A DNA stretch of 60,806 bases from a virus (IMGVR_UViG_3300042894_001153:1-60806); one strand, 5' to 3'; shown: positions 989 through 29,117, counted from the first letter of the stretch. Notes: generated by a model from the sequence alone, not told the origin. A program made the numbers and translations.

Positions 989-3900
989 TTATACATACTG
1001 TAAATAAATATCTCCGTCACTTCCGCCTGCAGGTGCTGCTGTTCCGCTTGTAATTGCTTTTTGTTTGTCATTAAATGTAGTCCAATCTGATGAATTTAAT
1101 GCTCCTCTATTAGCTGCTGATGCAGTTGGTACATTTAAAGTTATTACAGGCGTTGTGGTACTATTTGCAACCGTAGAACTTAAATCTGTACCCGTTGTAG
1201 CTAAAGTTAAAGCTGCAACCGAAGTAACCGTTCCACTACCACCACCACCACCTACTGCTACCCAAGCTGTGCCATTATACTGATAGAAAGATAAAAGGTC
1301 TGTATCATATACAATTAATCCTGTAGCAGGTGTAGCAATAGCATTTCTTTGAGTGGTAGTCATTCTTGGCAATAAAGCACCTTTAGTAGTGCTTACTACT
1401 TCAAGCATTGACGATGCATTTGGTGCTGTTGTTTGACCTATTGCCATTTGACCATTTGTCGCTAAATTTCCAGCATCATCAAAAGTGATTGATTTAGTAT
1501 TATCGCTATTTTCTACTTTAAAAGAATTAGTTGCTGATGTTGCACCACTACCCTTAATGTGAACGGTTGCAGTTGGTAGCGTTGCTCCAAGACCAAAACC
1601 ACTTAATGTAGTTGGTCTGATTAATAATCCATAATGAGTACCTGTTATTGATGTTAGTGTAGGTGTATATTCAATACCTACTACTCTACCTGTAGCTGTA
1701 CCTGTTTGTTGAATATCAGTATTAATCTGAATATGTGTTAACGTAGCAGTACCACTTGATGGGTTAAATGAATGTTGTGCGTTACTTTGATGATTGTTTA
1801 TAATCGAAAACAATCTATAATTACCACTTGTAGCATTAAGACTTTGAGTCCCCGCCCCGTTGATTATCTGAACTCCATCAAATCTTGTAGCATTTAAGTT
1901 CGAACTTATTTGAAGACCCCTTGTGATATATCTATCTGAAGCTAAACTTGCCCCCGCTATAAGTTCATAGAATGTGTCTCGCATTGACCATTTTGTAGCT
2001 CCCGCAGCCGCAAACGCAAAAGTTCCATCACCATAATGATTAAAACTTGCCGTACCGTCTGAATTTTCGGCCCTAAAATTTGTTGTTGCGGCAGTGTTTC
2101 CACTACCCTTAATGTGAACGGATGCAGTTGGTAATGTAGCACCAAGTCCAAAACCATTTAGTGTAGTTGGCTTAATTAATATTCCATAATGTGCGCCTAA
2201 AATAGATGTTAATGTAGGATTATATGTATAGCCTATTACATTAACAGTTCCACCTGTTTGGTTAATGGTAGGTCTTGATTCAAAAATATTAACAAAACTA
2301 TTACTTGAACCTGCAGTTATGCTAATATTATTATTTATTTTTAATATTGTGCTTTCCACTGGACTACCACCCGCAGAATGTACTATAACACCTAAATTAT
2401 TAAAAGCATAATAAGATGCTGCACTACCTATAGCCCCATTTAAACCAACTGTGGAAGCATTTAAAAAACTAATAGGTGTGGTTGTAGTATTAACACCTTG
2501 CAATACTACATTAGACGTTGATTTTAAAAAGAAATTTCCTGTTTTAGAAATTCCCTCTTCTCCACTAATACTGCCAAAAGTCATCCAAGAAGAACCACCT
2601 CTTTGCAATAATATTAAATCATAATTACTACCTCCACTTAATTGATTTGATGTTATAATACCACTGTCCCCAATTTTAAAGGATGCCGTATTTGTACTAT
2701 TTTCTGTAATAAATGAACTTGTTGCTGATGTAGCGCCTGAGCCTTTAGAATGCAGTGTTGCAGTCGGTACATTTATGCCTACACCTAATCTATTATTGGT
2801 ATCATCCCAAAATAAATTAGCTGCATCAGAACTAAATACACTTCCATTGCTAAATTGTACTGCACCTGCTACCCCACTTGGAGAAGCTGATATAGTAATA
2901 TCCCCACTACCTAAAAGCGTAGTTCCATTGATTGTTTTAATATTAGTGCCACTCACAAGAGTAGGCTGTATCCCTGCTCCTGATAAACTTACACTTGTCC
3001 ATAAGGTCGTAGCAGAATCATATTGAAGGATATCATTATCAACTGCACTATTTACAGATACATTATGCAACTCACCCAACTCATATCCATTATCTACCTT
3101 TACATATATCTGACCCTGCGTTGCGTGCGCCCTAATAACATATCCAATAATCACGGTATGAACAGGAGCAGTAGGCTTTATGTTTGTTATCCTTCCTGAT
3201 ACCGTTCCACTTAGGTATAACACATCTCCATCTGCCCAAGTTTCACCTTGAAGAGAACCCGTTGTATTTACATCTCTAATTAATCCATTTGATGTAATAA
3301 ATCCCTCTTGATTATTAAGAATTGTTTCTGTAACAAGTCCTAACGTCTCTGCGCTATTGGCATCACTATCAGCTAATGCTAAAGCAACTCTTATTCTATT
3401 TCCCTGCGCACCATTAATTCTTACTGCTTGATAATTGGCCTGTAAAAAATCTCCTCCACTCTTATTGACCACTCTTGTTACCTGCTCTTGTCCAACCTGA
3501 AGCGTGACATTGCCACCCTTTAGCACAAGGTCAACAGTTCCATCTGTATCATTCCATCTCATAACACCAACACCATTAGTGCCTGTAGGTGTTTGGTCAA
3601 ATTCAACCTGACCTGCCTTCAATTCAAATTCTCCTAAGTCAACGTTTGCTGTTGCACCTGTGTATGGAACTTTTGTATTTAATGCATTTTGTAAGTCAGT
3701 CTGTGTCGATAGAGTACCTGTTATACTTCCCCACGCTGCTGAGCCACTTATAGTAATATCTCCACTACCTAATAAAGTAACTCCATTAATTGTTTTAATA
3801 TTTGTACCTGATACTAATATAGGCTGAACAGCTAAATCTCCACTACCTAATATAGTAGTTGAGTTAATTGTTTTAATATTTGTACCTGATACAAGAGTTA

Positions 3901-7372: not shown

Positions 7373-7604
7373 TGGTATAGGTATCACCATTAATTACCAT
7401 AGTGTAGCCTGCTCTACTGTCGTAGTATATCTCATCGCCTTGGTTTATACCAACCACATCAGTGCCTGCCTTTACAATCTTACCTTTCTTGTACCTTAAC
7501 TGATTGGCATCCTCTGCCGATAGCAATAACCCTGAAGAGTGCTTTATCTCCTCCTCAATTGTTTTTATTAATATGTATTTGCCGATGGGTTGAAATTTAC
7601 TCAT
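7338..7604 (-). CDS. groES: Co-chaperonin GroES
   Basis: FQPIGKYILIK...SSGLLL...GKIVKAG...GDEIYY...YTIIVERDVVVVL. Confidence 0.9.
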   Translation of the reverse strand: MSKFQPIGKYILIKTIEEEIKHSSGLLLSAEDANQLRYKKGKIVKAGTDVVGINQGDEIYYDSRAGYTMVINGDTYTIIVERDVVVVL

Positions 7605-8275
7605 TTGTACTTAAATTTAATTTTTTTATTTAATGTTTTACTATTTACTTTATTAGTCTTTCCTTTTAAATTATTGGATATTGATGATTCCAAACAACCT
7701 AACTTATTAGAGGCCTCTCTTATAGAATAAAAACTTTCAATAAAATCACCTGTATAATAATCATAACATAGAACAGGAATAGCTGTTATTATTTTTGATT
7801 TATTAGATAGCCTCATTTTAGCTTTAACAGACTCAGGTGTTTTTTTTCCTATTCTTGATTTAGCTATGTTTTCTCTATGCTCTTTTGATTTTATTTTTCC
7901 CTTGTGAGCTAAAGATATTTTATTTTTCCATTCTTCAGTTCTTATCACAGCTTTTAAAGATTTAATTTTCTTTTTTAAAATATTACAAGAAAGTCCTTCA
8001 ACTGTAATCCCTCCTTTTGTTTGATTAATAAGTTGACCATTTTTTAAATCTATTCTTCCATATTTAGAGATAAGCTCTATTTCCAATTCAGAAGCTTGCT
8101 CCTTAGTAAGTCCATTTTTATATATTTCAACTATGCAACCATACTTATCTACTATTCTATTCCACCAAATAGACCTTTGCTTACAATACGCTCTTTTTAA
8201 GTCTCCCATCCCAATATAAAAAATAGAATTATCCGTTTCCTTTTTGTGAAGATATACAACTTTATTGTTTTCCAT
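7601..8275 (-). CDS. GIY-YIG-type homing endonuclease with NUMOD3/NUMOD1-like DNA-binding repeats
   Basis: VVYLH...FYIGMG...RAY; repeats EEWKNKISLAHKGK and EHRENIAKSRIGK; C-terminal FYSIREASNKLG. Confidence 0.8.
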   Translation of the reverse strand: MENNKVVYLHKKETDNSIFYIGMGDLKRAYCKQRSIWWNRIVDKYGCIVEIYKNGLTKEQASELEIELISKYGRIDLKNGQLINQTKGGITVEGLSCNILKKKIKSLKAVIRTEEWKNKISLAHKGKIKSKEHRENIAKSRIGKKTPESVKAKMRLSNKSKIITAIPVLCYDYYTGDFIESFYSIREASNKLGCLESSISNNLKGKTNKVNSKTLNKKIKFKYK

Positions 8276-8558: not shown

Positions 8559-8809
8559 AATTCATCGTCAACCCATATCGGGGTCTGTGGCCCAACGTAA
8601 GCATCAAAGATATTGAACTCAGCGTACTCGATAGCCTCGTACCTATTACCTGTCTCCTTTGTGAGTATCTTAATCACCTTCTTTCTTGAGTACACAATCC
8701 TAAAGGTGTCCTGCTCAATTCCTATTATAGCTAAATCCAATCCATCAGCGAATACTAATCCATCCTTAGCGTAATGCTCGTACGTATCGATTATGTTCTG
8801 CTTCTTCAT
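8555..8809 (-). CDS. Conserved hypothetical phage protein
   Basis: ADGLDLAIIG...YS...EAIEYAEFNI..AYVG..TPI motif. Confidence 0.75.
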   Translation of the reverse strand: MKKQNIIDTYEHYAKDGLVFADGLDLAIIGIEQDTFRIVYSRKKVIKILTKETGNRYEAIEYAEFNIFDAYVGPQTPIWVDDEL

Positions 8810-10401
8810 TCTGCTGAGTAGGTTCTTGCCATTGTGATAATGGCGTTGGTTGATAATATCGTTACTGCCACAGATACTGCGTTCTGAAGCGCACTTTTAG
8901 TTACCTTTAACGGGTCTATTACACCAAGCTCATACATATCTCCCCACACGTTGTTCTTCACATCAAGACCGTAGCTGTAATTCATATTAGCCATAACGAT
9001 ATCCTTTAATCCTGCGTTTCTCAAGATTTGATTCATCGGTGATGCTAATGCCTCGGCAAGTATCTTATCTGCAATAGATTGCTCACTTGTGTTTTTAGAT
9101 AGTATCTTAATAGCTTCTTTAAACAATGCAACTCCACCACCTGGGAGTATACCCTCCTCAAGTGCAGACCTCACAGCACAAACTGCATCATCCACTCTAT
9201 CGTAAAGCTCCTTCTGCTCTAAGTCTGTATTTCCACCTACGTAGATTACACCTACTCCACCTGATAAAGATGCAATCCTTGACAAAATAAATTCCTTATC
9301 AGCTTTCTTCTTAGAAATCCTGTGTGCAGACCATAACTGATTTACACGCTCTGTAATGGCTTCATTATTCTTTATGGACTTATCCCTTACCACGATGGTA
9401 GAATCCTTCTCTACGATGACTTTCTGTGCGTGTCCGAGGTCGTCTACGGTCATTATGCTAAGGTCGTCTCCTGTCTTCTCTGAGAAGTAGGTTGCTCCAA
9501 CCGTTAGTGCAATGTCCTGCATCAGCTCGTGCTGCTTGTAACCGAAGTTCGGTGGCTGTATCGCACATATCTTCAATCCGTTCTTCATCACGTTGGCAGC
9601 CAACGTATTTATCACGTTCTGAGAACACGGTGCTATAATAAGCAACTTCTTACCCTCGTTTATAATTGGTTTAAGTACGTTCTCAATGGTAAGTAAATTA
9701 TTTATCTCTGCATCACTCACAAGTACGTACGTGTCTTCAAAGACACAATCGTCCTTCTCGTGGTCTGTGACAAACAGGTTTGACATATACCCTCTGTCTA
9801 TCTTTAATCCATTGGTGGTCTCGTAGTACGTCTCAGAGGTCTGTGAGTTCGCTATCGTTACAATACCGTTCTTGCCAACTTTCTTGTACACGTCACTTAT
9901 GGTCTTACCCAAAGCTACGTCGTTGTTCGCTGAGATAATCGCAACATTCGCTAAGGTCGCATTTGATACCTTCCTTGAGTTTGCCTTTAGGCTATCAACC
10001 ACACCATTAGTTACAGTTACCATATCCCTTAACACTTGAGTCTTGTTCACACCATCAACGATGTACTTAAAGCCTGCTTTTACCAAGGCCTCGGTCAATA
10101 CTATCGCAGTGGTCGTGCCATCGCCTGCCGATGTCGCAGTCCTGTCTGCTGCCTCCTTCATCATCCTTACAGCCAAGTTTTCAATTGGGTCTAATAACTC
10201 AATCGACCTCGCAACAGTTACACCATCCTTAGTAACAGTAATTCCGTGTGTGTGATGTGGTGACTCTATTAGCACGGTCTGTCCACTTGGGCCAAGAGTT
10301 GACTTTACAGCCTTTGAGATTGTCTCTATACCCTTGAATAACTTTTCTCTTCCTTCCTCATCGAACTTGATGTCCTTTGGTGAGTATCCTAAATTTGACA
10401 T
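8806..10401 (-). CDS. groEL: Chaperonin GroEL
   Basis: TLGPSG, TKDGVTVA, GDGTTT, GGGVAL, VIDPLKV motifs; no GGM tail. Confidence 0.97.
   Translation of the reverse strand: MSNLGYSPKDIKFDEEGREKLFKGIETISKAVKSTLGPSGQTVLIESPHHTHGITVTKDGVTVARSIELLDPIENLAVRMMKEAADRTATSAGDGTTTAIVLTEALVKAGFKYIVDGVNKTQVLRDMVTVTNGVVDSLKANSRKVSNATLANVAIISANNDVALGKTISDVYKKVGKNGIVTIANSQTSETYYETTNGLKIDRGYMSNLFVTDHEKDDCVFEDTYVLVSDAEINNLLTIENVLKPIINEGKKLLIIAPCSQNVINTLAANVMKNGLKICAIQPPNFGYKQHELMQDIALTVGATYFSEKTGDDLSIMTVDDLGHAQKVIVEKDSTIVVRDKSIKNNEAITERVNQLWSAHRISKKKADKEFILSRIASLSGGVGVIYVGGNTDLEQKELYDRVDDAVCAVRSALEEGILPGGGVALFKEAIKILSKNTSEQSIADKILAEALASPMNQILRNAGLKDIVMANMNYSYGLDVKNNVWGDMYELGVIDPLKVTKSALQNAVSVAVTILSTNAIITMARTYSAE
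9731..9746. repeat. Palindrome copy 1 GTGTCTTCAAAGACAC (inside groEL)
   Basis: Read directly. Confidence 0.95.
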
Positions 10402-10480
10402 ATGATTGAATTATAATTAGGCAAAGATACAAACCTTTTCATATTATAAAAAAGAAAAAAGCTAAATGTCAGAATGCAGT

Positions 10481-10617
10481 TTTGCACCTTTCCTATTCTC
10501 TCTATATTAAATTATCTATTTATATATTATTTTTTTGAATAGAATTTGACTTTAAAATCAACATTTTCAACACTACTATTAATAATCAATTAGTTAACTA
10601 TATGGAATTAACATAAA
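10481..10617. promoter_or_regulatory. Origin-like element A (homologous to 22789-22920)
   Basis: TTTGCACC, AT-rich tract, AACATTTTCAACACTA, AATCAATTAGTTA, AACATAAA. Confidence 0.5.
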
Positions 10618-10698
10618 CAGGCCACGATTACTACACAAAAAGTGTCGAAAGTATATACAATTATACGAGAATGATACTGTTCAAAAAATGTACAATTT

Positions 10699-10725
10699 AA
10701 AAAGAGGGGTAATCAGCCCCTCTTT
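10699..10725 (-). terminator. Rho-independent terminator
   Basis: AAAGAGGGG/CCCCTCTTT hairpin with a T-run on the minus strand, downstream of 10762-10944. Confidence 0.7.
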
Positions 10726-10761
10726 AAGAAAACATAAAATATAACCCAATTCAAAAATCGT

Positions 10762-10944
10762 CTAATCTTCTAAGCCAAGTATCTTCATTTTTACCTCAGC
10801 TCGTACATAAGCTTCCTCCATCATAGAGATTTTTTTCTCTCTCTTAATCATCTGCTTTGCATCAATTGCTTGTTGTAATCCTGTTACACCCATAGGTCTA
10901 TTATCAGGCTTTCTTTCACTTGAACCCATTAATCCTTTTTTCAT
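10762..10944 (-). CDS. Hypothetical protein (leaderless candidate)
   Basis: 60 aa; TACCTTTG 4 nt upstream of ATG. Confidence 0.65.
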   Translation of the reverse strand: MKKGLMGSSERKPDNRPMGVTGLQQAIDAKQMIKREKKISMMEEAYVRAEVKMKILGLED

Positions 10945-11093
10945 TTAACAAAGGTAATACTTTTTTTCAGATAATCATAGTGTTTGGATACCCCATAGCG
11001 CTGTGGAAGCCGACCCGATTTGGAAAGTCATTTTATTTTTAGGGGTGGGGGTGCTGATTACCTTGCCCCTTGTCTGATTTTTTGGCTTTTTGC

Positions 11094-11170
11094 TACACGT
11101 GTGCGTGTGTGTACGTGTGTGTGTACGTGTGTATGTGTGTGCGTTATGCGTGTGTGTGTGCGTGTGCGCA
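11094..11170. repeat. Alternating purine-pyrimidine (GT-rich) tract
   Basis: 51 bp plus 26 bp of perfect RY alternation with one phase slip at 11144/11145. Confidence 0.9.
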
Positions 11171-11473
11171 GTTCCTTTTGCTTGCTGTATGGTGTGTGTC
11201 CTTGTCTATTTACTGAGAGACAATATTTTTTATTCAATTGTATTGCATTCTATTTGTGCTGTAATTTTTACCTGATGCATTACCAGTATGCGCATATTTT
11301 CTTGTAACTGATTGATTCTCATTCAAAATGTCGGTTTTATTACCTATTTGCGCTGTCTTAATTATTCGCTCACGTGTTTACTCACTTTGCGCTGTCTTAT
11401 TTGACATAATTTTTAATACTTTTTTCTCTCCTTTGCCGATTTTAAGAATATTTGCACCAAAAATTTATACTTT

Positions 11474-11489
11474 GTGTCCTTGAAGACAC
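11474..11489. repeat. Palindrome copy 2 GTGTCCTTGAAGACAC (non-coding junction)
   Basis: Read directly. Confidence 0.95.
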
Positions 11490-11675
11490 AGTCATATCAA
11501 CAGTCTTCACGTCTTGCACTATCCCTATCCCTTGCTATCACTACATAAACGAAAGATGGTGAACATCGAAATCACATAAAAACATTCTTTTTTAATTTTT
11601 TTTTAAAATCTTTCTCGCTCATTATCAGCAAGTTACAGCTGAAAATCACTTTTTTTTAAAAATATTTTTTTACCT

Positions 11676-11707
11676 ATTGTTTATGTCATATGAATACCCC
11701 ATCTTTG
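11676..11707 (+). promoter_or_regulatory. Early promoter, Bacteroidota sigma-A type (variant)
   Basis: ATTG-N20-CATCTTTG upstream of the first early gene; same spacing as the promoters at 15285 and 19149. Confidence 0.55.
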
Positions 11708-11789
11708 TATTGTTGAATTAGACGAAAAATAAACGAGACATATACTACATATATACTACATATAACATAAACAATTAATAATCAATCAA

Positions 11790-12419
11790 ATGGAACAATT
11801 ACTAACAATCGAACAAAACTTTCTAAGTTTACCAACATCTAAGATGGGATTCAACCTTACTGAAGTTAACAAGGCAAAACGCCTAATTACAAATGCGCAA
11901 AAATCGAAGTTTGCACACACTATGCATTTAGCATCTTGCATCAAAACAGCTGTGGAGTATTTCGAGTCACCACAATGCCAAGCATTAATGCAGACTGAAG
12001 GTATATCTTGGAACAAGGAGGATTTAGGCATCAAGGTATTCGGATATCAAAAAAGCTATTTTCATAAATTGCTTAGGGCATCCAAGGTGAGTGAGCAAAT
12101 ATTGACTGCATACAACAGCAAATGTGACGAGATAGCAGATGCCGAGCGCAGTATTGCAGGACTGCTTGAATTTAGCAAGAACGTGAATGTAGAGGTGAGC
12201 GCAGATGCAACAGCAGAGGAGATTGAAGAAGCAACAGCAGAGGCAATTGAGAGTGCATCAATAGAGAGAACACCGACCATTTTCACAATGTCCTTTAAAA
12301 ATCCAAACGGATGCAATGTAGCTGTAAGGATTGATGCTGACGGCAAATTGAGTACTACCAACAGCACTGAGGATATTATGAACGCAATTGCTTTCCTACA
12401 AGCACAATTGACAGCCTAA
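11790..12419 (+). CDS. First early gene; putative HTH DNA-binding protein with an acidic linker
   Basis: WNKEDLGIKVFGYQKSYFHKLLRASK resembles a ParB/KorB-like HTH; flanked by palindromes on both sides. Confidence 0.55.
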   Translation: MEQLLTIEQNFLSLPTSKMGFNLTEVNKAKRLITNAQKSKFAHTMHLASCIKTAVEYFESPQCQALMQTEGISWNKEDLGIKVFGYQKSYFHKLLRASKVSEQILTAYNSKCDEIADAERSIAGLLEFSKNVNVEVSADATAEEIEEATAEAIESASIERTPTIFTMSFKNPNGCNVAVRIDADGKLSTTNSTEDIMNAIAFLQAQLTA

Positions 12420-12424
12420 AAATT

Positions 12425-12440
12425 GTGTCTTCAAGGACAC
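12425..12440. repeat. Palindrome copy 3 GTGTCTTCAAGGACAC
   Basis: Read directly; 5 bp after the stop codon. Confidence 0.95.
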
Positions 12441-12449
12441 AAACCAAAC

Positions 12450-12496
12450 AGCAGAGTATGGTATCCAAGGATGTTCGATTCGTCCTCTCTGCTCCA
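12450..12496 (+). ncRNA. tRNA minihelix-like element 1 (acceptor stem + T-arm + CCA, no anticodon arm)
   Basis: GCAGAG/CTCTGC, AGGATG-TTCGATT-CGTCCT, then T-CCA. Confidence 0.65.
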
Positions 12497-12517
12497 CAAA
12501 AAATCAAAAAAAATCAT

Positions 12518-13417
12518 ATGGCAACAAAAACCAAAAAAATCGAAGAGTTAGTTTACACTACGGATGGCAATTCAGAAAGAGGCGAAGTACAGCACTATCA
12601 TCGTAAACCACACCCGAGGGAACTGCAAATTGGTGCAAAGCACACCGACATAGCACAGCTAAAGCCAAACCAAAAGCAAAACCTAATCAAGTTTGCCAAT
12701 GGGGACTACAGCTCAAAGTTCACCATCGGTTTTGAGGTCGAGAAAAACAGCCTATCAAGGGGCGCAGTCAAAGAGTATCCATTGTTTTGTGGATTCGAGC
12801 GTGATGGTAGCTGTGGTTACGAGGCAGTGACGAACATTTTGCCTTTGCTTCCATCGGGTAAATGGAGAAACAAAGTTTTCTCAATGATGGTAGATGCAAA
12901 GCGCATCATCGAAGACCAATACAGCCCATCTGATAGGAGATGTGGAGGTCATTGCACCATAGCTGTGGAGGGGATGGATGGTAGAGAGATAATGGAGATG
13001 GTAAGAAAGAATTGTGGTGTTATATGGGCAATGTTCAGAAATAGACTAAGCAATAGTTACTGCTCTCATAACCAAAGACTCATTACGGATTATGACCATA
13101 CACGTGATGGTAGCAGATACCATACAGCCTTAATCAAAGGCAATTGCTTAGAGTTTAGGCTTATTGCAAGGTTTCAATCGGTTAAACAAATGATGCGTAG
13201 GTATGAATTGTTTTATGAATTGGTAAACTTTAGTGTAAACAAGCCAAACGGAAAGTTCAAGGAGTTTTTGAAGATAGTAAAACCAATTGTACTATCTATG
13301 TATGAGGGTGATGTGGCAAAGACTGAAGAGATAATGACCTTATCGGTTAAGATGCAAGATTACATCAACGATGGTACTAACTGCGACGAAATCAGAGAGT
13401 TCGTGAGAGGTTGGTAG
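12518..13417 (+). CDS. Putative amidoligase (COOH-NH2 ligase, Amidoligase_2-like)
   Basis: TIGFEVE, ERDGS, YEAVT, RCGGH, RY, LEFR motifs; likely start MATKTKK. Confidence 0.8.
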   Translation: MATKTKKIEELVYTTDGNSERGEVQHYHRKPHPRELQIGAKHTDIAQLKPNQKQNLIKFANGDYSSKFTIGFEVEKNSLSRGAVKEYPLFCGFERDGSCGYEAVTNILPLLPSGKWRNKVFSMMVDAKRIIEDQYSPSDRRCGGHCTIAVEGMDGREIMEMVRKNCGVIWAMFRNRLSNSYCSHNQRLITDYDHTRDGSRYHTALIKGNCLEFRLIARFQSVKQMMRRYELFYELVNFSVNKPNGKFKEFLKIVKPIVLSMYEGDVAKTEEIMTLSVKMQDYINDGTNCDEIREFVRGW

Positions 13418-13432
13418 TGTCTTCAAAGACAC
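13417..13432. repeat. Palindrome copy 4 GTGTCTTCAAAGACAC (overlaps TAG stop)
   Basis: Read directly. Confidence 0.95.
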
Positions 13433-13433
13433 A

Positions 13434-13482
13434 AGCAAGGTTTGGAAGTTAATGTTGGGTTCGAGTCCCTTCCCTTGCTCTA
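13434..13482 (+). ncRNA. tRNA minihelix-like element 2
   Basis: GCAAGG/CCTTGC, GGG-TTCGAGT-CCC, then T-CTA; same geometry as element 1. Confidence 0.55.
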
Positions 13483-13497
13483 ATTTAATATAATAAA

Positions 13498-13815
13498 ATG
13501 GATACGTTAAACAAACAACAAATCGAAAATGTACTTAATGCCTACAAACAAATGGCTGAGAGTATAAGGTTATCAGACAATGAGACAGCACTTGCAATGT
13601 GCGATGCAAACTTTATGGATTTAGACATCGATAGGTATTGCAAAAAGGTTATGGGCTTGAACATAAACTTACTTGACATCGATGCAATCATCTTTGGTAG
13701 GGCTTATCACCTATATCCTACACCATACGGAATGGTTAATAGGTATAACAAGCATCCTTACGATGCATTGGTAGACAGAATCGTAATTTTAACAAAATAT
13801 TTAAACCAACAATAA
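13498..13815 (+). CDS. Hypothetical early protein
   Basis: 105-aa ORF with an A-rich leader. Confidence 0.65.
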   Translation: MDTLNKQQIENVLNAYKQMAESIRLSDNETALAMCDANFMDLDIDRYCKKVMGLNINLLDIDAIIFGRAYHLYPTPYGMVNRYNKHPYDALVDRIVILTKYLNQQ

Positions 13816-13816
13816 T

Positions 13817-13969
13817 ATGAGAACTATCATCTTTACTTTAGCATCTTTCGTCGGTCTTTGGATGGTCTTCCAAGGCTTAGCGCATCAAAACGGACTAATG
13901 ATTATGGGCGCATTGCTTGTATTCTTTTCATCCTTACTTTTACTTTGGGCAGAAACAAAAAACAAATGA
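13817..13969 (+). CDS. Small two-TM membrane protein
   Basis: Hand translation MRTIIFTLASFVGLWMVFQGLAHQNGLMIMGALLVFFSSLLLLWAETKNK; ATGA coupling to the next gene. Confidence 0.65.
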   Translation: MRTIIFTLASFVGLWMVFQGLAHQNGLMIMGALLVFFSSLLLLWAETKNK

Positions 13970-14340
13970 ACAATAAAAACATCAAGTTCTTTGAGATTGA
14001 GTACAATTACAAAGACAATCCGACAGCAGAAAAAAGGACAGCACTTGTAACCGATGCCGAGTACAGCAAGAAAGTATTTATGGACATCGATGATGAAATC
14101 TTCCACTACGATATGGACGAGGACTACCTGAAGGTATTGGTCGAGTTAGGTGGCAGTACGTTTAACGATTTCATAGTCTACAGCTACAAAGCAATCGAGA
14201 GTGTCCTTGAAGACACAAAGGAAGATAGAATGTACACCGAGATAGAGATGCGATTAGCATTTACGATGGGTAGTCTTCATCAAGTGACGGGAGTTAGTTC
14301 TATCGAGGAGGTATTAGAGAAATTAAATAAAAATATATGA
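13966..14340 (+). CDS. Hypothetical early protein (modular; palindrome internal)
   Basis: Likely start MNNKNIK; C-terminal RMYTEIEMRLAF module follows SVLEDT. Confidence 0.65.
   Translation: MNNKNIKFFEIEYNYKDNPTAEKRTALVTDAEYSKKVFMDIDDEIFHYDMDEDYLKVLVELGGSTFNDFIVYSYKAIESVLEDTKEDRMYTEIEMRLAFTMGSLHQVTGVSSIEEVLEKLNKNI
14201..14216. repeat. Palindrome copy 5 GTGTCCTTGAAGACAC
   Basis: Read directly. Confidence 0.95.
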
Positions 14341-14546
14341 ACAAAATAAATTTTGGCAAGGTTGTGACGATAGTTACAACAGCCGTAGCACTAATGATTT
14401 CAACAAGAGCAATCTTGAGCATCATCAAGGACATCGTATGCAATGAGCATTCATTCTTGGGCATTGCCCATAGGTTGACAATCATTTTCATCATCGCATC
14501 GTTAACATTTTTAGCAATTAAATTCCTAACCTATGAGGACAAGTAG
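14337..14546 (+). CDS. Small membrane protein
   Basis: Two hydrophobic segments. Confidence 0.6.
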   Translation: MNKINFGKVVTIVTTAVALMISTRAILSIIKDIVCNEHSFLGIAHRLTIIFIIASLTFLAIKFLTYEDK

Positions 14547-14952
14547 TATGATAACAATAGAAGATGTATCGAGTGTATGCAGTCAAATGGACTGCACACT
14601 CACACAAGAGCATATGCAATGGATAGTCGAAAACTATTCTCAATTCGAGATGGAAGACTCAACATCCAATTGGTCGGAGATAGTGGAGGATATTATTTAT
14701 AGAAATTTTAACGAACAAATCAAACATTATACGTTGTTAGATATAATGAATACAGAATTAAAAACATTATACGTTGTTAGATATAATGACGTATACGGAA
14801 ACGGAGACAAGCAAAAACTTGAGGTCATTGTTCAGGATAGGAATCAGTTCTTAGAATGGTTAGAAGAACACAATGAGTGCAGAGGTTCTGAGGACGAAGG
14901 CGAGGAAGAGTTCGATTTAATACCATTACCCCTATATAAACCAACAGTATGA
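14533..14952 (+). CDS. Hypothetical acidic protein, apparent fusion with an internal 28-bp duplication
   Basis: ORF track; repeat 14722-14749 / 14762-14789. Confidence 0.6.
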   Translation: MRTSSMITIEDVSSVCSQMDCTLTQEHMQWIVENYSQFEMEDSTSNWSEIVEDIIYRNFNEQIKHYTLLDIMNTELKTLYVVRYNDVYGNGDKQKLEVIVQDRNQFLEWLEEHNECRGSEDEGEEEFDLIPLPLYKPTV

Positions 14953-15182
14953 GCGATGAACAATTGTACGACATAATGTGCATCGACGAGGATGGCTATG
15001 AAATAGCGCACCAAAGAGAGATGTCATACCTGAATGCCCACAAAGAAAAGAATCGCCTTGAGAGTCTGTATCCCAATATTGTATACTACCTATCGTTGTC
15101 AGTGTTAGAGGAAGAGGAGGAAGAGAGGCATTATAACGAACGTGCTGTAGATGGGTGGGAGGATATGTTCCCTGAGTATTAG
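14949..15182 (+). CDS. Hypothetical acidic protein
   Basis: 77-aa ORF, ATGA coupling. Confidence 0.65.
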   Translation: MSDEQLYDIMCIDEDGYEIAHQREMSYLNAHKEKNRLESLYPNIVYYLSLSVLEEEEEERHYNERAVDGWEDMFPEY

Positions 15183-15197
15183 TGTCTTTAAAGACAC
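15182..15197. repeat. Palindrome copy 6 GTGTCTTTAAAGACAC (overlaps TAG stop)
   Basis: Read directly; perfect palindrome. Confidence 0.95.
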
Positions 15198-15284
15198 AAA
15201 ATTGTAGGATAGAGTATACATTAGGTGCAAAAATCAGGCTTAATGTATGCTTTATCATACGTCAAAAAAATAAATAAAAATAAA

Positions 15285-15316
15285 TTTGGATAGTATATAT
15301 AATTGTACTATCTTTG
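15285..15316 (+). promoter_or_regulatory. Bacteroidota sigma-A promoter
   Basis: TTTG-N20-TATCTTTG; near-identical context at 19149-19180. Confidence 0.85.
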
Positions 15317-15340
15317 TACCTTAATTAAACGAAATATAAT

Positions 15341-16426
15341 ATGTGCTTAATAATAATCAAACAAAAATCAAAAGAAGTATCAGCAGATGTACTAAAGTCT
15401 GCATCAAAAATCAACAGAGATGGGTTGGGTGTGGTGTGGTTGGATACCTACGAGGTAAGCTACCACAAGTCTAAGGAGTATGAGATTCTGAATACGGATA
15501 GACCATACATTGCACACTTCAGGTATGCGACGGTTGGTAAGGTCTGCATAGAAAATACTCATCCGTTTGTGTGTGGTAAGAACGAGAACGAATTGCTTAT
15601 GATGAACGGAACGATACGTGGCTTGGGTGATGCGAACAAGACAGACAGTAAGGTTCTTGCAGAGTCACTTGGAGATATCGATAGGGGAGCGTGGAGAGGT
15701 GAGTTAGCTAAGCATCCTTGTAGGTTCGTGACCATCAACAAAAAGACGAAGTCATTCGAGATATTCAATAAGCATCTATACACCCAAAAGAATGGTGTGT
15801 GGTACTCTAAAGACGAGGTGCTTGAGGATAACTATATGGCTGTGTACGGCACACTAAAGAAGGGTAACGGGAACTATTGGTCTTACTTGTATGGTTCAAC
15901 ACACGTTGGCAAGGGCAAGACAAAGGATTTGTATCCATTGCTAATCGAGGGGCTTCCGTATCTAATCAATGAGAAGGGAGTTGGTCATAACGTATCGGTA
16001 GATGTGTTCAAGGTGACTGACAGCGTACTAAAGAAAATAGATGCGTTAGAGGGGCATCCGAATTGGTATAGAAGGGAGCAGATACCAATTGTAGTTGGCA
16101 AGAAGGAGGTTATGTGTTGGGTATACTTTAACCCAAGGGAGTTGCGTTCTGATTCAGTTATGCATAAGTCATTCGAGTGGAGCGCACCACCAAAGAAGAT
16201 TGCGCATCAGCTACCATTGATACCAATTTCAAAGGATAAGAGTTTATTGGACGAGTGTACTCAGTACACGTATTGGGAGGACAAGTGGGATGATTTTGAC
16301 AGCATCAAGACACACAGTCCCGTATGCATTGGTTGTTACGGAGACGTGATAAACGATAACTTTGGTAACTACTACTGTAACAAGTGCGATAGTTGGTACT
16401 CAGAGAGCGAGGTGATTAAGTTTTAG
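15341..16426 (+). CDS. Class II glutamine amidotransferase fused to a gamma-glutamylcyclotransferase (AIG2-like) domain and a C-terminal Zn ribbon
   Basis: N-terminal Cys (MCLII), NRDGLG, AHFRYATVG, NTHPF, MMNG, TDS; VYGTLKKG..N and IDALEGHP.WY.R; CIGC...CNKC. Confidence 0.88.
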   Translation: MCLIIIKQKSKEVSADVLKSASKINRDGLGVVWLDTYEVSYHKSKEYEILNTDRPYIAHFRYATVGKVCIENTHPFVCGKNENELLMMNGTIRGLGDANKTDSKVLAESLGDIDRGAWRGELAKHPCRFVTINKKTKSFEIFNKHLYTQKNGVWYSKDEVLEDNYMAVYGTLKKGNGNYWSYLYGSTHVGKGKTKDLYPLLIEGLPYLINEKGVGHNVSVDVFKVTDSVLKKIDALEGHPNWYRREQIPIVVGKKEVMCWVYFNPRELRSDSVMHKSFEWSAPPKKIAHQLPLIPISKDKSLLDECTQYTYWEDKWDDFDSIKTHSPVCIGCYGDVINDNFGNYYCNKCDSWYSESEVIKF

Positions 16427-16441
16427 TGTCTTTAAAGACAC
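16426..16441. repeat. Palindrome copy 7 GTGTCTTTAAAGACAC (overlaps TAG stop)
   Basis: Read directly. Confidence 0.95.
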
Positions 16442-16541
16442 AATCTTACTGACGCAGAGTAAATGCAATGTAAGTGAGATTACCAACAAAGGGGTGCAGT
16501 ATCCTATAAACTGCATTATAAAAAAATTAAATAAAATAAAA

Positions 16542-16919
16542 ATGAACAAACAATTTGTGCCTTACAAAGAGGCATCTGCCTTAAAAGAACTTGGATTCAA
16601 TGAAAAGTGTCTTGGATATTATGGTATCCAAAATGAATTGAAGATTGAGATTAGTTCTAATTTAGATACTAATTTAACAAGAAGAGATTTCTATGCTGCC
16701 CCAACCTATTCACAAGCCTTCAGATGGTTTAGAAAGAAGTGTAAATACCACCATTACATAGAGCCGATATATAGGGACGGAAAAGTTTATTATGAGTATT
16801 GCGTAGTTAATTACCTTGAAGACGAAAAGAACTTTAACGAAGAAAATATTGCTTCTACATACGAGGAGGCAGAACTTGAGTGCTTGAGAAAATTAATAGA
16901 AATAGTAAAAATTAAATAA
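16542..16919 (+). CDS. Conserved Bacteroidota-phage hypothetical protein
   Basis: FVPYKEASALKELGF.E.C, APTYSQAFRWFR, TYEEAELECLRKLIEI. Confidence 0.75.
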   Translation: MNKQFVPYKEASALKELGFNEKCLGYYGIQNELKIEISSNLDTNLTRRDFYAAPTYSQAFRWFRKKCKYHHYIEPIYRDGKVYYEYCVVNYLEDEKNFNEENIASTYEEAELECLRKLIEIVKIK

Positions 16920-16925
16920 AATAAA

Positions 16926-17453
16926 ATGCTAACAGAATTAACTTGGAACAATATCTTTATAAAGGGTAGTAGTTCCGTATTAGATGGTATTGAAGAAAAG
17001 GTCTTTAGTCCAAATGCAGACGAGTACTTGTACAGTTTTCTTACACTAAATGAGTCGATGCCTAAAAAACTAAAGCTAACGTCATTGGTCTTGGAGAGGT
17101 TATCACCCACTGAGATGACGATTAACGTGGATTCAAATGGAGACCTAATGAATGAGTTCCTATTGAAGCTATCGAGCGTGTATAAGGTTCACATAACGTG
17201 CAAGTACGAGGATGATAGTATGGACATCGGAGGGACATTTGTCTGCAAAAATGGGACAACTTTAAAGGACTTGTCTTACAGCTATTTGGCGCATAGGTAC
17301 ATCGAGGATGGCATTGACGCAATTGCTTTAGACGTTGAGGAGTACATAAAGGAGGGAGAGACCTTTGAGGAGTTTATGTCAGAGCAAGGTCTGTGGACAA
17401 TAGTAACCAAGGATGATAGGGAATTAATTTACGATATGTTTAATCAAGAATAA
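16926..17453 (+). CDS. Hypothetical protein, possibly YubB/ferredoxin-like
   Basis: WNNIFIKG start and YED.SMD.GG pattern. Confidence 0.55.
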   Translation: MLTELTWNNIFIKGSSSVLDGIEEKVFSPNADEYLYSFLTLNESMPKKLKLTSLVLERLSPTEMTINVDSNGDLMNEFLLKLSSVYKVHITCKYEDDSMDIGGTFVCKNGTTLKDLSYSYLAHRYIEDGIDAIALDVEEYIKEGETFEEFMSEQGLWTIVTKDDRELIYDMFNQE

Positions 17454-17455
17454 TT

Positions 17456-17674
17456 ATGATAACACCAAAAGAAAAAGCTGAAGAGTTAGTCCTAAAGTTC
17501 AAGGAAGTCTCTATGGGATATGGATTCAATGATGCAATGTGGTATATACCATCAGATGTGGCAAGGCTATTAGCATTGCGTTGTGTTGATGAGATATTAG
17601 ATGCAGTTACTACCATCGCAGATAAACAGTACGATTATTGGCAAGAAGTAAAACAAGAAATAAAATTATTATGA
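17456..17674 (+). CDS. Conserved hypothetical (TPKEKAEELV...YWQEVKQEI family)
   Basis: Recognisable motif. Confidence 0.75.
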   Translation: MITPKEKAEELVLKFKEVSMGYGFNDAMWYIPSDVARLLALRCVDEILDAVTTIADKQYDYWQEVKQEIKLL

Positions 17675-28928: not shown

Positions 28929-29116
28929 AGTCAGGTGGCGAAATGGTAGACGCAAGTTTGTAGGTTTTATGTTGCGAGTTAAAAACAACCTTAAAAGTGA
29001 AGTTAACCATCACAAGTGCGTATATAGTACCTTATGTGTTCCAAACCTATATATGTTAGTGTGAATTAACACACAAGTTAAATAGCAACTTACAGGTTCG
29101 AATCCTGTCCTGACTG
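28929..29116 (+). ncRNA. tRNA-like RNA with a ~135-nt structured insert replacing the anticodon/variable arms
   Basis: Acceptor AGTCAGG/CCTGACT, Leu-type D-arm GCG-AAATGGTAGA-CGC, T-arm ACAGG-TTCGAAT-CCTGT. Confidence 0.75.
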
Positions 29117-29117
29117 C

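Follow-up and report, generated by a model that had tools for sequence, protein, structure and literature searches.

An anticodon-less tRNA-like minihelix as a candidate RNase P/RNase Z punctuation signal in the early operons of phages

What does a tRNA-like fold that has no anticodon arm do between two early genes of a phage? The question is raised by a 47-base element at 12450-12496 (+) of a viral sequence of 60,806 nt (IMGVR_UViG_3300042894_001153:1-60806), the whole of which was analysed and is called the window here. The window is a ~60.8-kb phage encoding GroEL, a portal protein, a terminase and a 2540-aa protein. The closest terminases are those of the Flavobacterium 'elemo' podoviruses (45% identity), followed by those of Cellulophaga phages (35-39%), and the phage is probably a podovirus of Flavobacteriia-like hosts. 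Its minus strand carries a NUMOD1 homing-endonuclease-like gene (7601-8275) and the gene for the phage-encoded GroEL chaperonin (8806-10401). The GroEL gene and gene 1, which are divergent, are separated by a 1.4-kb non-coding region (10400-11790). This region has a GT-rich, low-complexity run (about 11095-11170) and a single copy of a hairpin motif described below, and is probably an early control or terminal region. The element and its immediate surroundings are made up of the following features.

11790-12419 (+): gene 1, the upstream neighbour, 209 aa, no family match
12423-12442 (+): conserved intergenic hairpin with a 16-nt palindromic core (12425-12440) and an 8-bp stem, immediately 3' of the stop codon of gene 1 and separated from 12450 by 7 nt
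12450 (+): position -1, an A
12451-12456 (+): 5' strand of the acceptor-like stem, 6 nt; all six pairs covary
12457-12467 (+): 11-nt linker with A-T-G-G-T, including a D-loop-like GG, standing for the D arm, anticodon arm and variable loop
12468-12486 (+): T arm, a 6-bp stem (12468-73/12481-86) closing the 7-nt T-loop (12474-12480); five of the six pairs covary
12487-12492 (+): 3' strand of the acceptor-like stem, running on from the 3' strand of the T stem, with 12 nt from T-loop to N73
12493-12496 (+): discriminator-like T12493 and CCA (12494-12496), the local form of the family tail N73-C-N-A
12518-13417 (+): gene 2, the downstream neighbour, 299 aa, more than 1000 homologues
13434-13482 (+): second family member, in the spacer between genes 2 and 3 after a hairpin at 13417-13432; tail T-CTA, two U.U mismatches in the T stem

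The element folds into a continuous 6+6-bp acceptor/T helix with a T-loop, a linker, N73 and CCA. The acceptor-like stem (12451-12456/12487-12492) consists of six Watson-Crick pairs, and the T stem (12468-12473/12481-12486) of five Watson-Crick pairs and one U.G pair; the T-loop reads TTCGATT, the canonical consensus. RNAfold gives this fold as both the minimum free energy and the centroid structure at -14.6 kcal/mol (z -2.26), a value equalled by 6 of 200 shuffled sequences. When the upstream hairpin is included, the energy is -24.0 kcal/mol (z -3.58), which none of 200 shuffled sequences matches. The helix, loop, GG-bearing linker and T-CCA end that the original prediction described are thus all borne out by the sequence and by RNAfold. 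A possible 13th pair, A12450:T12493, has no support in the family described below, where it is unpaired in 17 of 29 and in 12 of 16 rows of two alignments. Since this outermost modelled pair (-1:73) is mostly unpaired, the helix has 12 bp as in tRNA. Compared with a canonical tRNA, the element has the T arm, the 12-bp coaxial acceptor/T stack and N73, the 5' strand being divided 6+6 rather than 7+5, and it lacks the cloverleaf and the anticodon stem-loop, the acceptor and T stems being separated by the 11-nt linker only.

tRNA scanners had been expected to overlook such a fold, and this proves correct. ARAGORN finds neither a tRNA nor a tmRNA in the whole window. Rfam gives no gathering-score match in the window, and relaxing the cutoff to E<=10 near the site brings up only a noise match; the tRNA model (RF00005) has no match within 12300-12650 even at E<=10. 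Scanned for a T-loop with a split helix of at least 12 bp and a GG-bearing linker, the window yields one site, and 8 of 200 dinucleotide shuffles yield one or more; the motif by itself is therefore mildly unusual, not decisive. A covariance model, R2, was built from 27 family members without any sequence of the window to avoid circularity. R2 recognises the element with 51.3 bits (E 3.6e-12) and the second copy with 37.9 bits (E 2.7e-8), and there is no further full-length match in the window below E 0.01. It is the family evidence, rather than the lone motif, that is decisive for regarding the element as real.

The family was collected along several routes. With the gene 2 protein as anchor, 29 IMG/VR loci were obtained, five of which carry similar elements in the same region (L001 with three copies, L003, L015, L017 and L018). 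A pattern search for the hairpin followed by GGT and the T-loop gave 22 further loci, most of them with strong model matches, and among 80 gene-2-anchored loci on metagenome contigs 13 carry a total of 21 matches. A hairpin-free pattern search of IMG/VR returned 19 loci, mostly chance, of which the model confirmed only three; an exact IMG/VR search with 29 nt of the 3' part of the element returned no match. A GC-richer member was found in another IMG/VR record. The distinct relatives amount to 43 members (50 rows) from about 32 phage loci.

In an alignment of 29 rows (A3), 94.1% of 370 cells are standard pairs, compared with 48-53% when the partners are slid by 1-3 columns, and in an independent metagenome set of 16 distinct rows (A6), 93.1% are paired, compared with 41-50%; because both alignments are fitted to the model, pairing is somewhat inflated, and the slid controls carry an equal bias. 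Both sides have changed at 12 of the 13 modelled pairs in A3 and again at 12 of 13 in A6, and the covariation score of A3 is reached by none of 500 shuffles. The covariance-model search in related phages that had been proposed as a check has thereby been carried out, yielding many relatives with compensatory changes, and the absence of such changes, which would have spoken against the prediction, is contradicted in both alignments. The closest relative, L098, whose gene 2 protein is 91% identical, agrees with element 1 at 45 of 47 positions; the two changes, one in the linker and one at a variable T-loop position, are both unpaired, and the gene 2 DNA is less conserved (86.4% identity). Element 2 differs from its orthologues in 13 of 49 alignment columns, and three T-stem pairs have been exchanged compensatorily. 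In the window copy two T-stem pairs are lost to U.U, whereas the orthologues in L098, L099 and L100 have a perfect, different T stem. These comparisons indicate that the fold is maintained by selection in the family.

The same data bear on whether the element might be a chance motif or an att-site fragment derived from the 3' part of a host tRNA gene. A T arm followed by the acceptor 3' strand and CCA does resemble attP cores as an excerpt of PMC9897764 presents them, and shuffled sequences now and then contain the bare motif. However, an att site would hold only the 3' part of a tRNA gene, in a single copy and with an integrase, whereas the element has both acceptor strands, which covary, and occurs in 1-4 copies per genome (two in the window) with differing stems. 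No integrase is found among the annotated subset of the window ORFs, and the R2 score was obtained with the window left out of the model. This explanation is barely credible.

The nucleotides that do not vary are those that define a tRNA shape. In A3, the T-loop and its closing G-C pair are invariant, and the linker columns read A in 25, T in 23, G in 29, G in 29 and T in 27 of the 29 rows, a conservation of linker and T-loop that is partly imposed by the hairpin + GGT + T-loop search pattern. The GG is present in all nine members found without that pattern. The family tail is N73-C-N-A, with C74 in 43 of 43 and A76 in 41 of 43 distinct members, a purine at N73 in 31 of 43 and T, A, C and G at N75 in 22, 10, 6 and 5 members, respectively. 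The CCA end that had been noted in the window element is therefore one variant of the tail, which 6 of 43 distinct members have, and does not characterise the family. Real tRNA genes (Arg-TCT, Ile-TAT, Leu-TAA) lie about 1.5 kb upstream in 14 of the 29 IMG/VR loci, and those of sister phages have A73-C74 in 17 of 19 and A at position 76 in 16 of 19 cases, as read by eye; in several loci the tRNA-Arg genes, too, lie a few nt 3' of a small hairpin. The shared tail suggests that the mini-elements copy the local pre-tRNA format, including its CCA-less tail. While the T-loop, the GG linker, C74 and A76 are conserved, the stems and N73 vary freely. Conservation restricted to shape-defining nucleotides, with stems drifting under compensation, fits enzymes that read the shape of a tRNA. 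The view that the core is a mimic of the tRNA acceptor/T arm with an elbow, residing in a transcribed mRNA and having no anticodon arm, is strongly supported by these patterns.

An aminoacyl carrier, one of the roles originally considered, is unlikely, since acceptor stems and N73 vary freely and pair 3:70 is UA in 8, CG in 7, GC in 7 and AU in 6 of the 29 rows of A3, with one gap, and never G.U. The linker also contains an ATG. Of 29 members that have ATGG and an ORF downstream, seven have this ATG in frame and just three have it both in frame and open, indicating that it does not serve as a start codon. In the window, the in-frame ATG at 12458, which would give a 319-aa ORF, was accordingly rejected as the start of gene 2, the relatives of which align from 12518.

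All examined copies are co-directional with the flanking genes and occupy spacers between genes of the early operon. Their distance from the preceding stop codon is 15-30 nt, three copies overlapping the stop, and that to the next start is 15-38 nt, apart from a few larger gaps. A t-element is a non-canonical tRNA-like fold within an mRNA precursor, beside coding regions, and the copies, being intergenic and co-directional, agree with this. In scans of whole records the number of full-length copies per genome is 1-4; all are confined to 1-3.4 kb of the early operon, the rest of the 60-70 kb being free of them. The copies lie between genes 1 and 2, between genes 2 and 3, upstream of gene 1, after the homologue of 15341-16426 and after the homologue of 14949-15182. 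Since these intergenic positions, at least five in number, differ between phages, the element is not tied to gene 2, and the suggested link to a downstream 'amidoligase' is not real. The amidoligase label itself is not confirmed. Gene 2 has no Pfam match even at E<=10 and no PHROG match, and a 21-sequence profile finds no relative among solved structures (best E 0.3); on the other side, an ESM-Atlas feature match (0.96) leads to viral clusters in which 12-61% of members carry PF12224 (Amidoligase_2). Gene 2 lies two genes upstream of a gene (15341-16426) encoding a fused class-II glutamine amidotransferase-like and gamma-glutamyl cyclotransferase (GATase-GGACT) protein, and the language-model match together with this nearby gene makes amidoligase a reasonable lead. 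The two genes may form a phage set for modifying peptides or metabolites.

Most copies lie 0-9 nt 3' of the conserved hairpin, and three precede it instead. The 16-nt palindromic motif of this hairpin occurs 14 times in the window, where 0.21 occurrences are expected (for example at 11474, 12425, 13417, 15182, 16426, 18068, 19110, 22358 and 49500). It mostly overlaps stop codons of early genes, is kept in most relatives and, at five sites (9731, 14201, 26792, 35194 and 56586), lies inside long ORFs; its outer stem covaries among relatives, as judged by reading. The hairpin may stabilise RNA 3' ends, bind a protein or mark a boundary of recombination. It is unlikely to act as a promoter for the element, as the acceptor 5' strand often begins 0-1 nt after the hairpin and yet covaries. 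In L099 (gene 2 identity 91%), element 1 is absent from 440-600 and an element of another type lies upstream of gene 2, flanked by two hairpin copies and accompanied by an extra ORF, which suggests cassette exchange at the hairpins.

Such arrangements raise the possibility that the element is a decaying tRNA gene, or a selfish hairpin + tRNA-like unit spread by recombination without benefit to the phage. The patchy distribution among close relatives, exemplified by the loss of element 1 in L099, the tandem hairpin-element units of L001 and L099 and the mismatches in the second window copy would all be expected of a relic or cassette. Decay, however, does not leave 93-94% of cells paired and both partners altered at 12 of 13 pairs, nor does it explain the invariant tertiary-contact nucleotides or an element more conserved than the flanking coding DNA. 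A unit that spreads selfishly would also depend on machinery that requires the fold, and no such machinery is known. We consider a functionless relic or cassette very improbable.

Intermediates between tRNA and the minimal form do exist. A D arm is kept in L003, L107, L108 and a pair of elements in MW202828; L177 and L162 have a short capped hairpin (a stub of the tetraloop or triloop type) in the linker; and in the 74-nt form of L035 a loop of 3 nt closes the 'anticodon arm'. These forms show that the family derives from tRNA, its decoding loop having been removed repeatedly. The window itself holds a further RNA-like stretch of ~190 nt at 28929-29117 (+) whose ends are those of a tRNA: the acceptor has 7 bp, the 5' part resembles a D arm, the T arm is canonical and the tail reads G-CAA, while about 110 nt stand in place of the anticodon arm; ARAGORN and Rfam are silent on it. 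Its homologues are the L035 form of 74 nt, with the 3-nt-loop stub and a GCCA end, and a form in MW202828 (~523-632) with an insert of ~50 nt.

The family also extends beyond these podoviruses. When R2 was run on Bacteroidota genomes, with only about 41 candidates scored per genome, 2 of 151 sampled genomes had a match. One is a member in the early region of a Mu-like prophage (L205 9814-9861 (-), equal to G141:C2:56813-56860), which carries the markers rve transposase, AAA_22, DUF3164 and Mom; this member is not accompanied by the podovirus hairpin motif. The other is on a small contig of phage-like character that encodes an exonuclease and a DNA polymerase. In the cultured relatives Elemovirus, Cellulophaga phi19:3/phi38:1, Tenacibaculum Gundel_1 and MW202828, no full-length match above 20 bits was found; the matches there are T arms of real tRNAs and two weak tRNA-like stubs, and no ready laboratory model emerged from this set. 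In Cellulophaga phage phi19:3 (L079 ~1440-1620 (-); 67.2-67.4 kb), three T-loop-like motifs stand in a row with weak tRNA-like flanks (best 19.4 bits), and these may be degenerate relatives of the family.

Two functional options had been offered at the outset, a t-element and a released tRNA mimic, and these are the leading readings. According to an excerpt of PMC4919913, RNase P docks on the tRNA elbow, measures the stack of acceptor and T stems and base-pairs with the 3' end, and the D-loop is reported to be dispensable for it. As an excerpt of PMC1920247 describes, plant-mitochondrial t-elements direct cuts by RNase P and RNase Z at mRNA ends, and the excised pieces receive C or CCA. Together with these precedents, the shape-only conservation leads us to read the element as an inter-cistronic punctuation signal, and co-directional copies in short inter-cistronic spacers are the layout expected of processing sites. 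We give about even chances to the reading of the element as a t-element-like RNase P/RNase Z punctuation signal in the early polycistronic mRNA.

In the proposed mechanism, the element would lie within the polycistronic early mRNA, where the GG of the linker would mimic a D-loop and form a tRNA elbow with the T-loop. Host RNase P would cut on the 5' side, at a predicted site between 12450 and 12451, leaving a gene 1 mRNA that ends in the conserved hairpin. The host's tRNA 3' maturation, by RNase Z or by exonucleases, would act at T12493 or CCA by cutting or trimming, thereby freeing a gene 2 mRNA with a short, A-rich leader without a Shine-Dalgarno (SD) sequence, and a minihelix of ~46 nt would be set free, as a by-product or a secondary product. 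The fold with its conservation and covariation, the intergenic position in the early operon and the tail in common with phage tRNA genes are observed. From these we infer transcription through the element, both cleavages and an effect on mRNA stability or translation. An intrinsic terminator is not the explanation of the fold, as a terminator scan gives no plus-strand site at the element, whose CCA is followed by the A-rich leader. A combined sigma-70 promoter and terminator scan of 10400-17500 stays at background level and is uninformative for a host of Bacteroidota type.

Several observations stand against punctuation. Position -1 is mostly A (30 of 43 distinct members), whereas T predominates there in real phage tRNAs. 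The single-stranded leader between hairpin and element is just 0-1 nt long in many members, and this could hinder RNase P. The 5' strand is split 6+6 rather than 7+5, and the second copy has its two U.U mismatches in the T stem. Most relatives have no element, one being present in 5 of 29 and 13 of 80 gene-2-anchored loci. If the D-loop is dispensable, as the excerpt of PMC4919913 has it, the strict conservation of the GG asks for more than a minimal RNase P site. Finally, parts of the window occur in 24 sequencing runs (23 DNA-type and one RNA), of which the four examined are contigs and so show no molecule ends, and one RNA contig, from a relative ~90% identical, crosses the second element unbroken (13142-13700). 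Uncut RNA, or DNA carry-over, therefore exists.

The unbroken metatranscriptome contig is also what would be expected if the element were an uncleaved cis-acting module that stabilises or insulates the cistrons, or recruits a tRNA-binding component of translation to the SD-less leader. The fixed short distances to the next start (15-38 nt) and to the preceding stop, and the company of another hairpin at most copies, agree with such a module. A simple hairpin would suffice for stability, however, and one is already present; no conserved pairing with the start region was seen by reading; and the conserved C74/A76 tail, common with real tRNA genes, points to 3'-end maturation. An uncleaved module is thus an improbable explanation.

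The features that exceed what punctuation demands lead to the second option, in which cleavage is a maturation step and the released, CCA-tailed minihelix of ~46 nt is the functional product, acting as a shape decoy or sponge for proteins that read the acceptor end or the elbow of tRNA. Targets might be, for example, abortive-infection toxins modifying or cutting the tRNA 3' end, tRNA-modifying or tRNA-processing enzymes, or readers of the elbow. Full elbow mimicry by GG and T-loop and the N73-C-N-A tail are stricter than a minimal RNase P site as outlined in the excerpt of PMC4919913. Up to four copies per genome are putatively expressed from the early operon, several lineages have swapped the anticodon loop for a closed stub while keeping the RNA, and members occur in unrelated phage backbones, namely the Mu-like prophage and the DNA-polymerase-bearing phage fragment. 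On the other hand, an RNA without an anticodon is no decoy for anticodon nucleases, no partner is known, and most relatives do without the element. Moreover, the copies always lie exactly in inter-cistronic spacers, which a free-standing small RNA gene would not need. We regard a functional minihelix of this kind as rather unlikely. Carried further, the excised, CCA-ended minihelix might accumulate early and represent a new class of anti-defence or host-takeover RNA; selection would then have removed the anticodon to keep the decoy out of translation, and the spread into unrelated phage backbones would reflect its benefit. That extension seems to us decidedly unlikely.

Several known RNAs share parts of the design. 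The tRNA-like domain of tmRNA has an acceptor stem, a T arm and a stemless D-loop analogue with GG and no anticodon arm, its ends being joined around a body of ~300 nt that contains the tag reading frame, and it is charged through G3.U70. The phage element has the same acceptor stem, T arm and GG without an anticodon arm, but its halves are joined by 9-13 nt in the family and no G.U occurs at 3:70 in 29 rows; with 47 nt it has no tag-encoding body, and ARAGORN reports no tmRNA. With canonical tRNA it has in common the T-loop consensus, the 12-bp acceptor/T stack, N73 and a tail like that of the phage's own tRNA genes. The anticodon arm, which is retained in armless mitochondrial tRNAs, is wholly absent from the phage element, whose 5' strand is split 6+6. 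In mascRNA and MEN-beta RNA (from MALAT1 and NEAT1), cutting by RNase P and RNase Z maturates the upstream RNA and frees a CCA-tailed small RNA; unlike the phage element, these are eukaryotic nuclear lncRNAs with cloverleaf-like folds of ~60 nt. Early-operon spacers of T7 contain RNase III sites, at which cutting by a host RNase leaves hairpin-protected 3' ends. These sites are the nearest phage precedent in function, and they differ in enzyme and in fold, a long irregular duplex as against a tRNA mimic.

The plant-mitochondrial t-elements resemble the phage family in being tRNA-like folds with a conserved T arm beside coding regions, but they are imperfect organellar cloverleaves of ~74 nt with experimentally mapped ends, in the account excerpted from PMC1920247. 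The phage elements are sequence-defined, 43-47 nt long and devoid of an anticodon arm, with borders predicted from sequence. YrlA, as an excerpt of PMC4201824 describes it, is a tRNA mimic without a decoding function, some forms of which are phage-encoded, and the Mycobacterium smegmatis form is cut by RNase P and receives CCA; unlike the phage element, it is larger, has D and T arms together with a Ro60-binding stem and adjoins the Ro60 gene. The window has no Rfam gathering-score match to such an RNA and no Ro60-like gene among the annotated subset of its ORFs. A full-text literature search, confined to main articles, found no description of phage elements of this kind. A tRNA-like processing signal is thus a principle known from organelles and eukaryotic lncRNAs, while a sequence-defined, anticodon-less family of ~45 nt in phage early operons appears to be new. 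We know of no natural tRNA mimic smaller than about 45 nt that has an elbow without D or anticodon arms.

As tRNA finders are blind to these elements and Rfam holds no such family, they are missed in phage annotation. Should the released RNA be the product, phages would have a small RNA of a new kind, whose action depends solely on its tRNA shape. If the punctuation reading is true, the family would be a natural collection of minimal substrates, diverse in sequence, for RNase P, RNase Z and the CCA-adding enzyme, and polycistronic constructs in Bacteroidota would gain a compact tag for processing. Bacteroidota phages would then use the host tRNA-maturation machinery to cut up their early operon, in a phage counterpart of mitochondrial tRNA punctuation and of the RNase III sites of T7.
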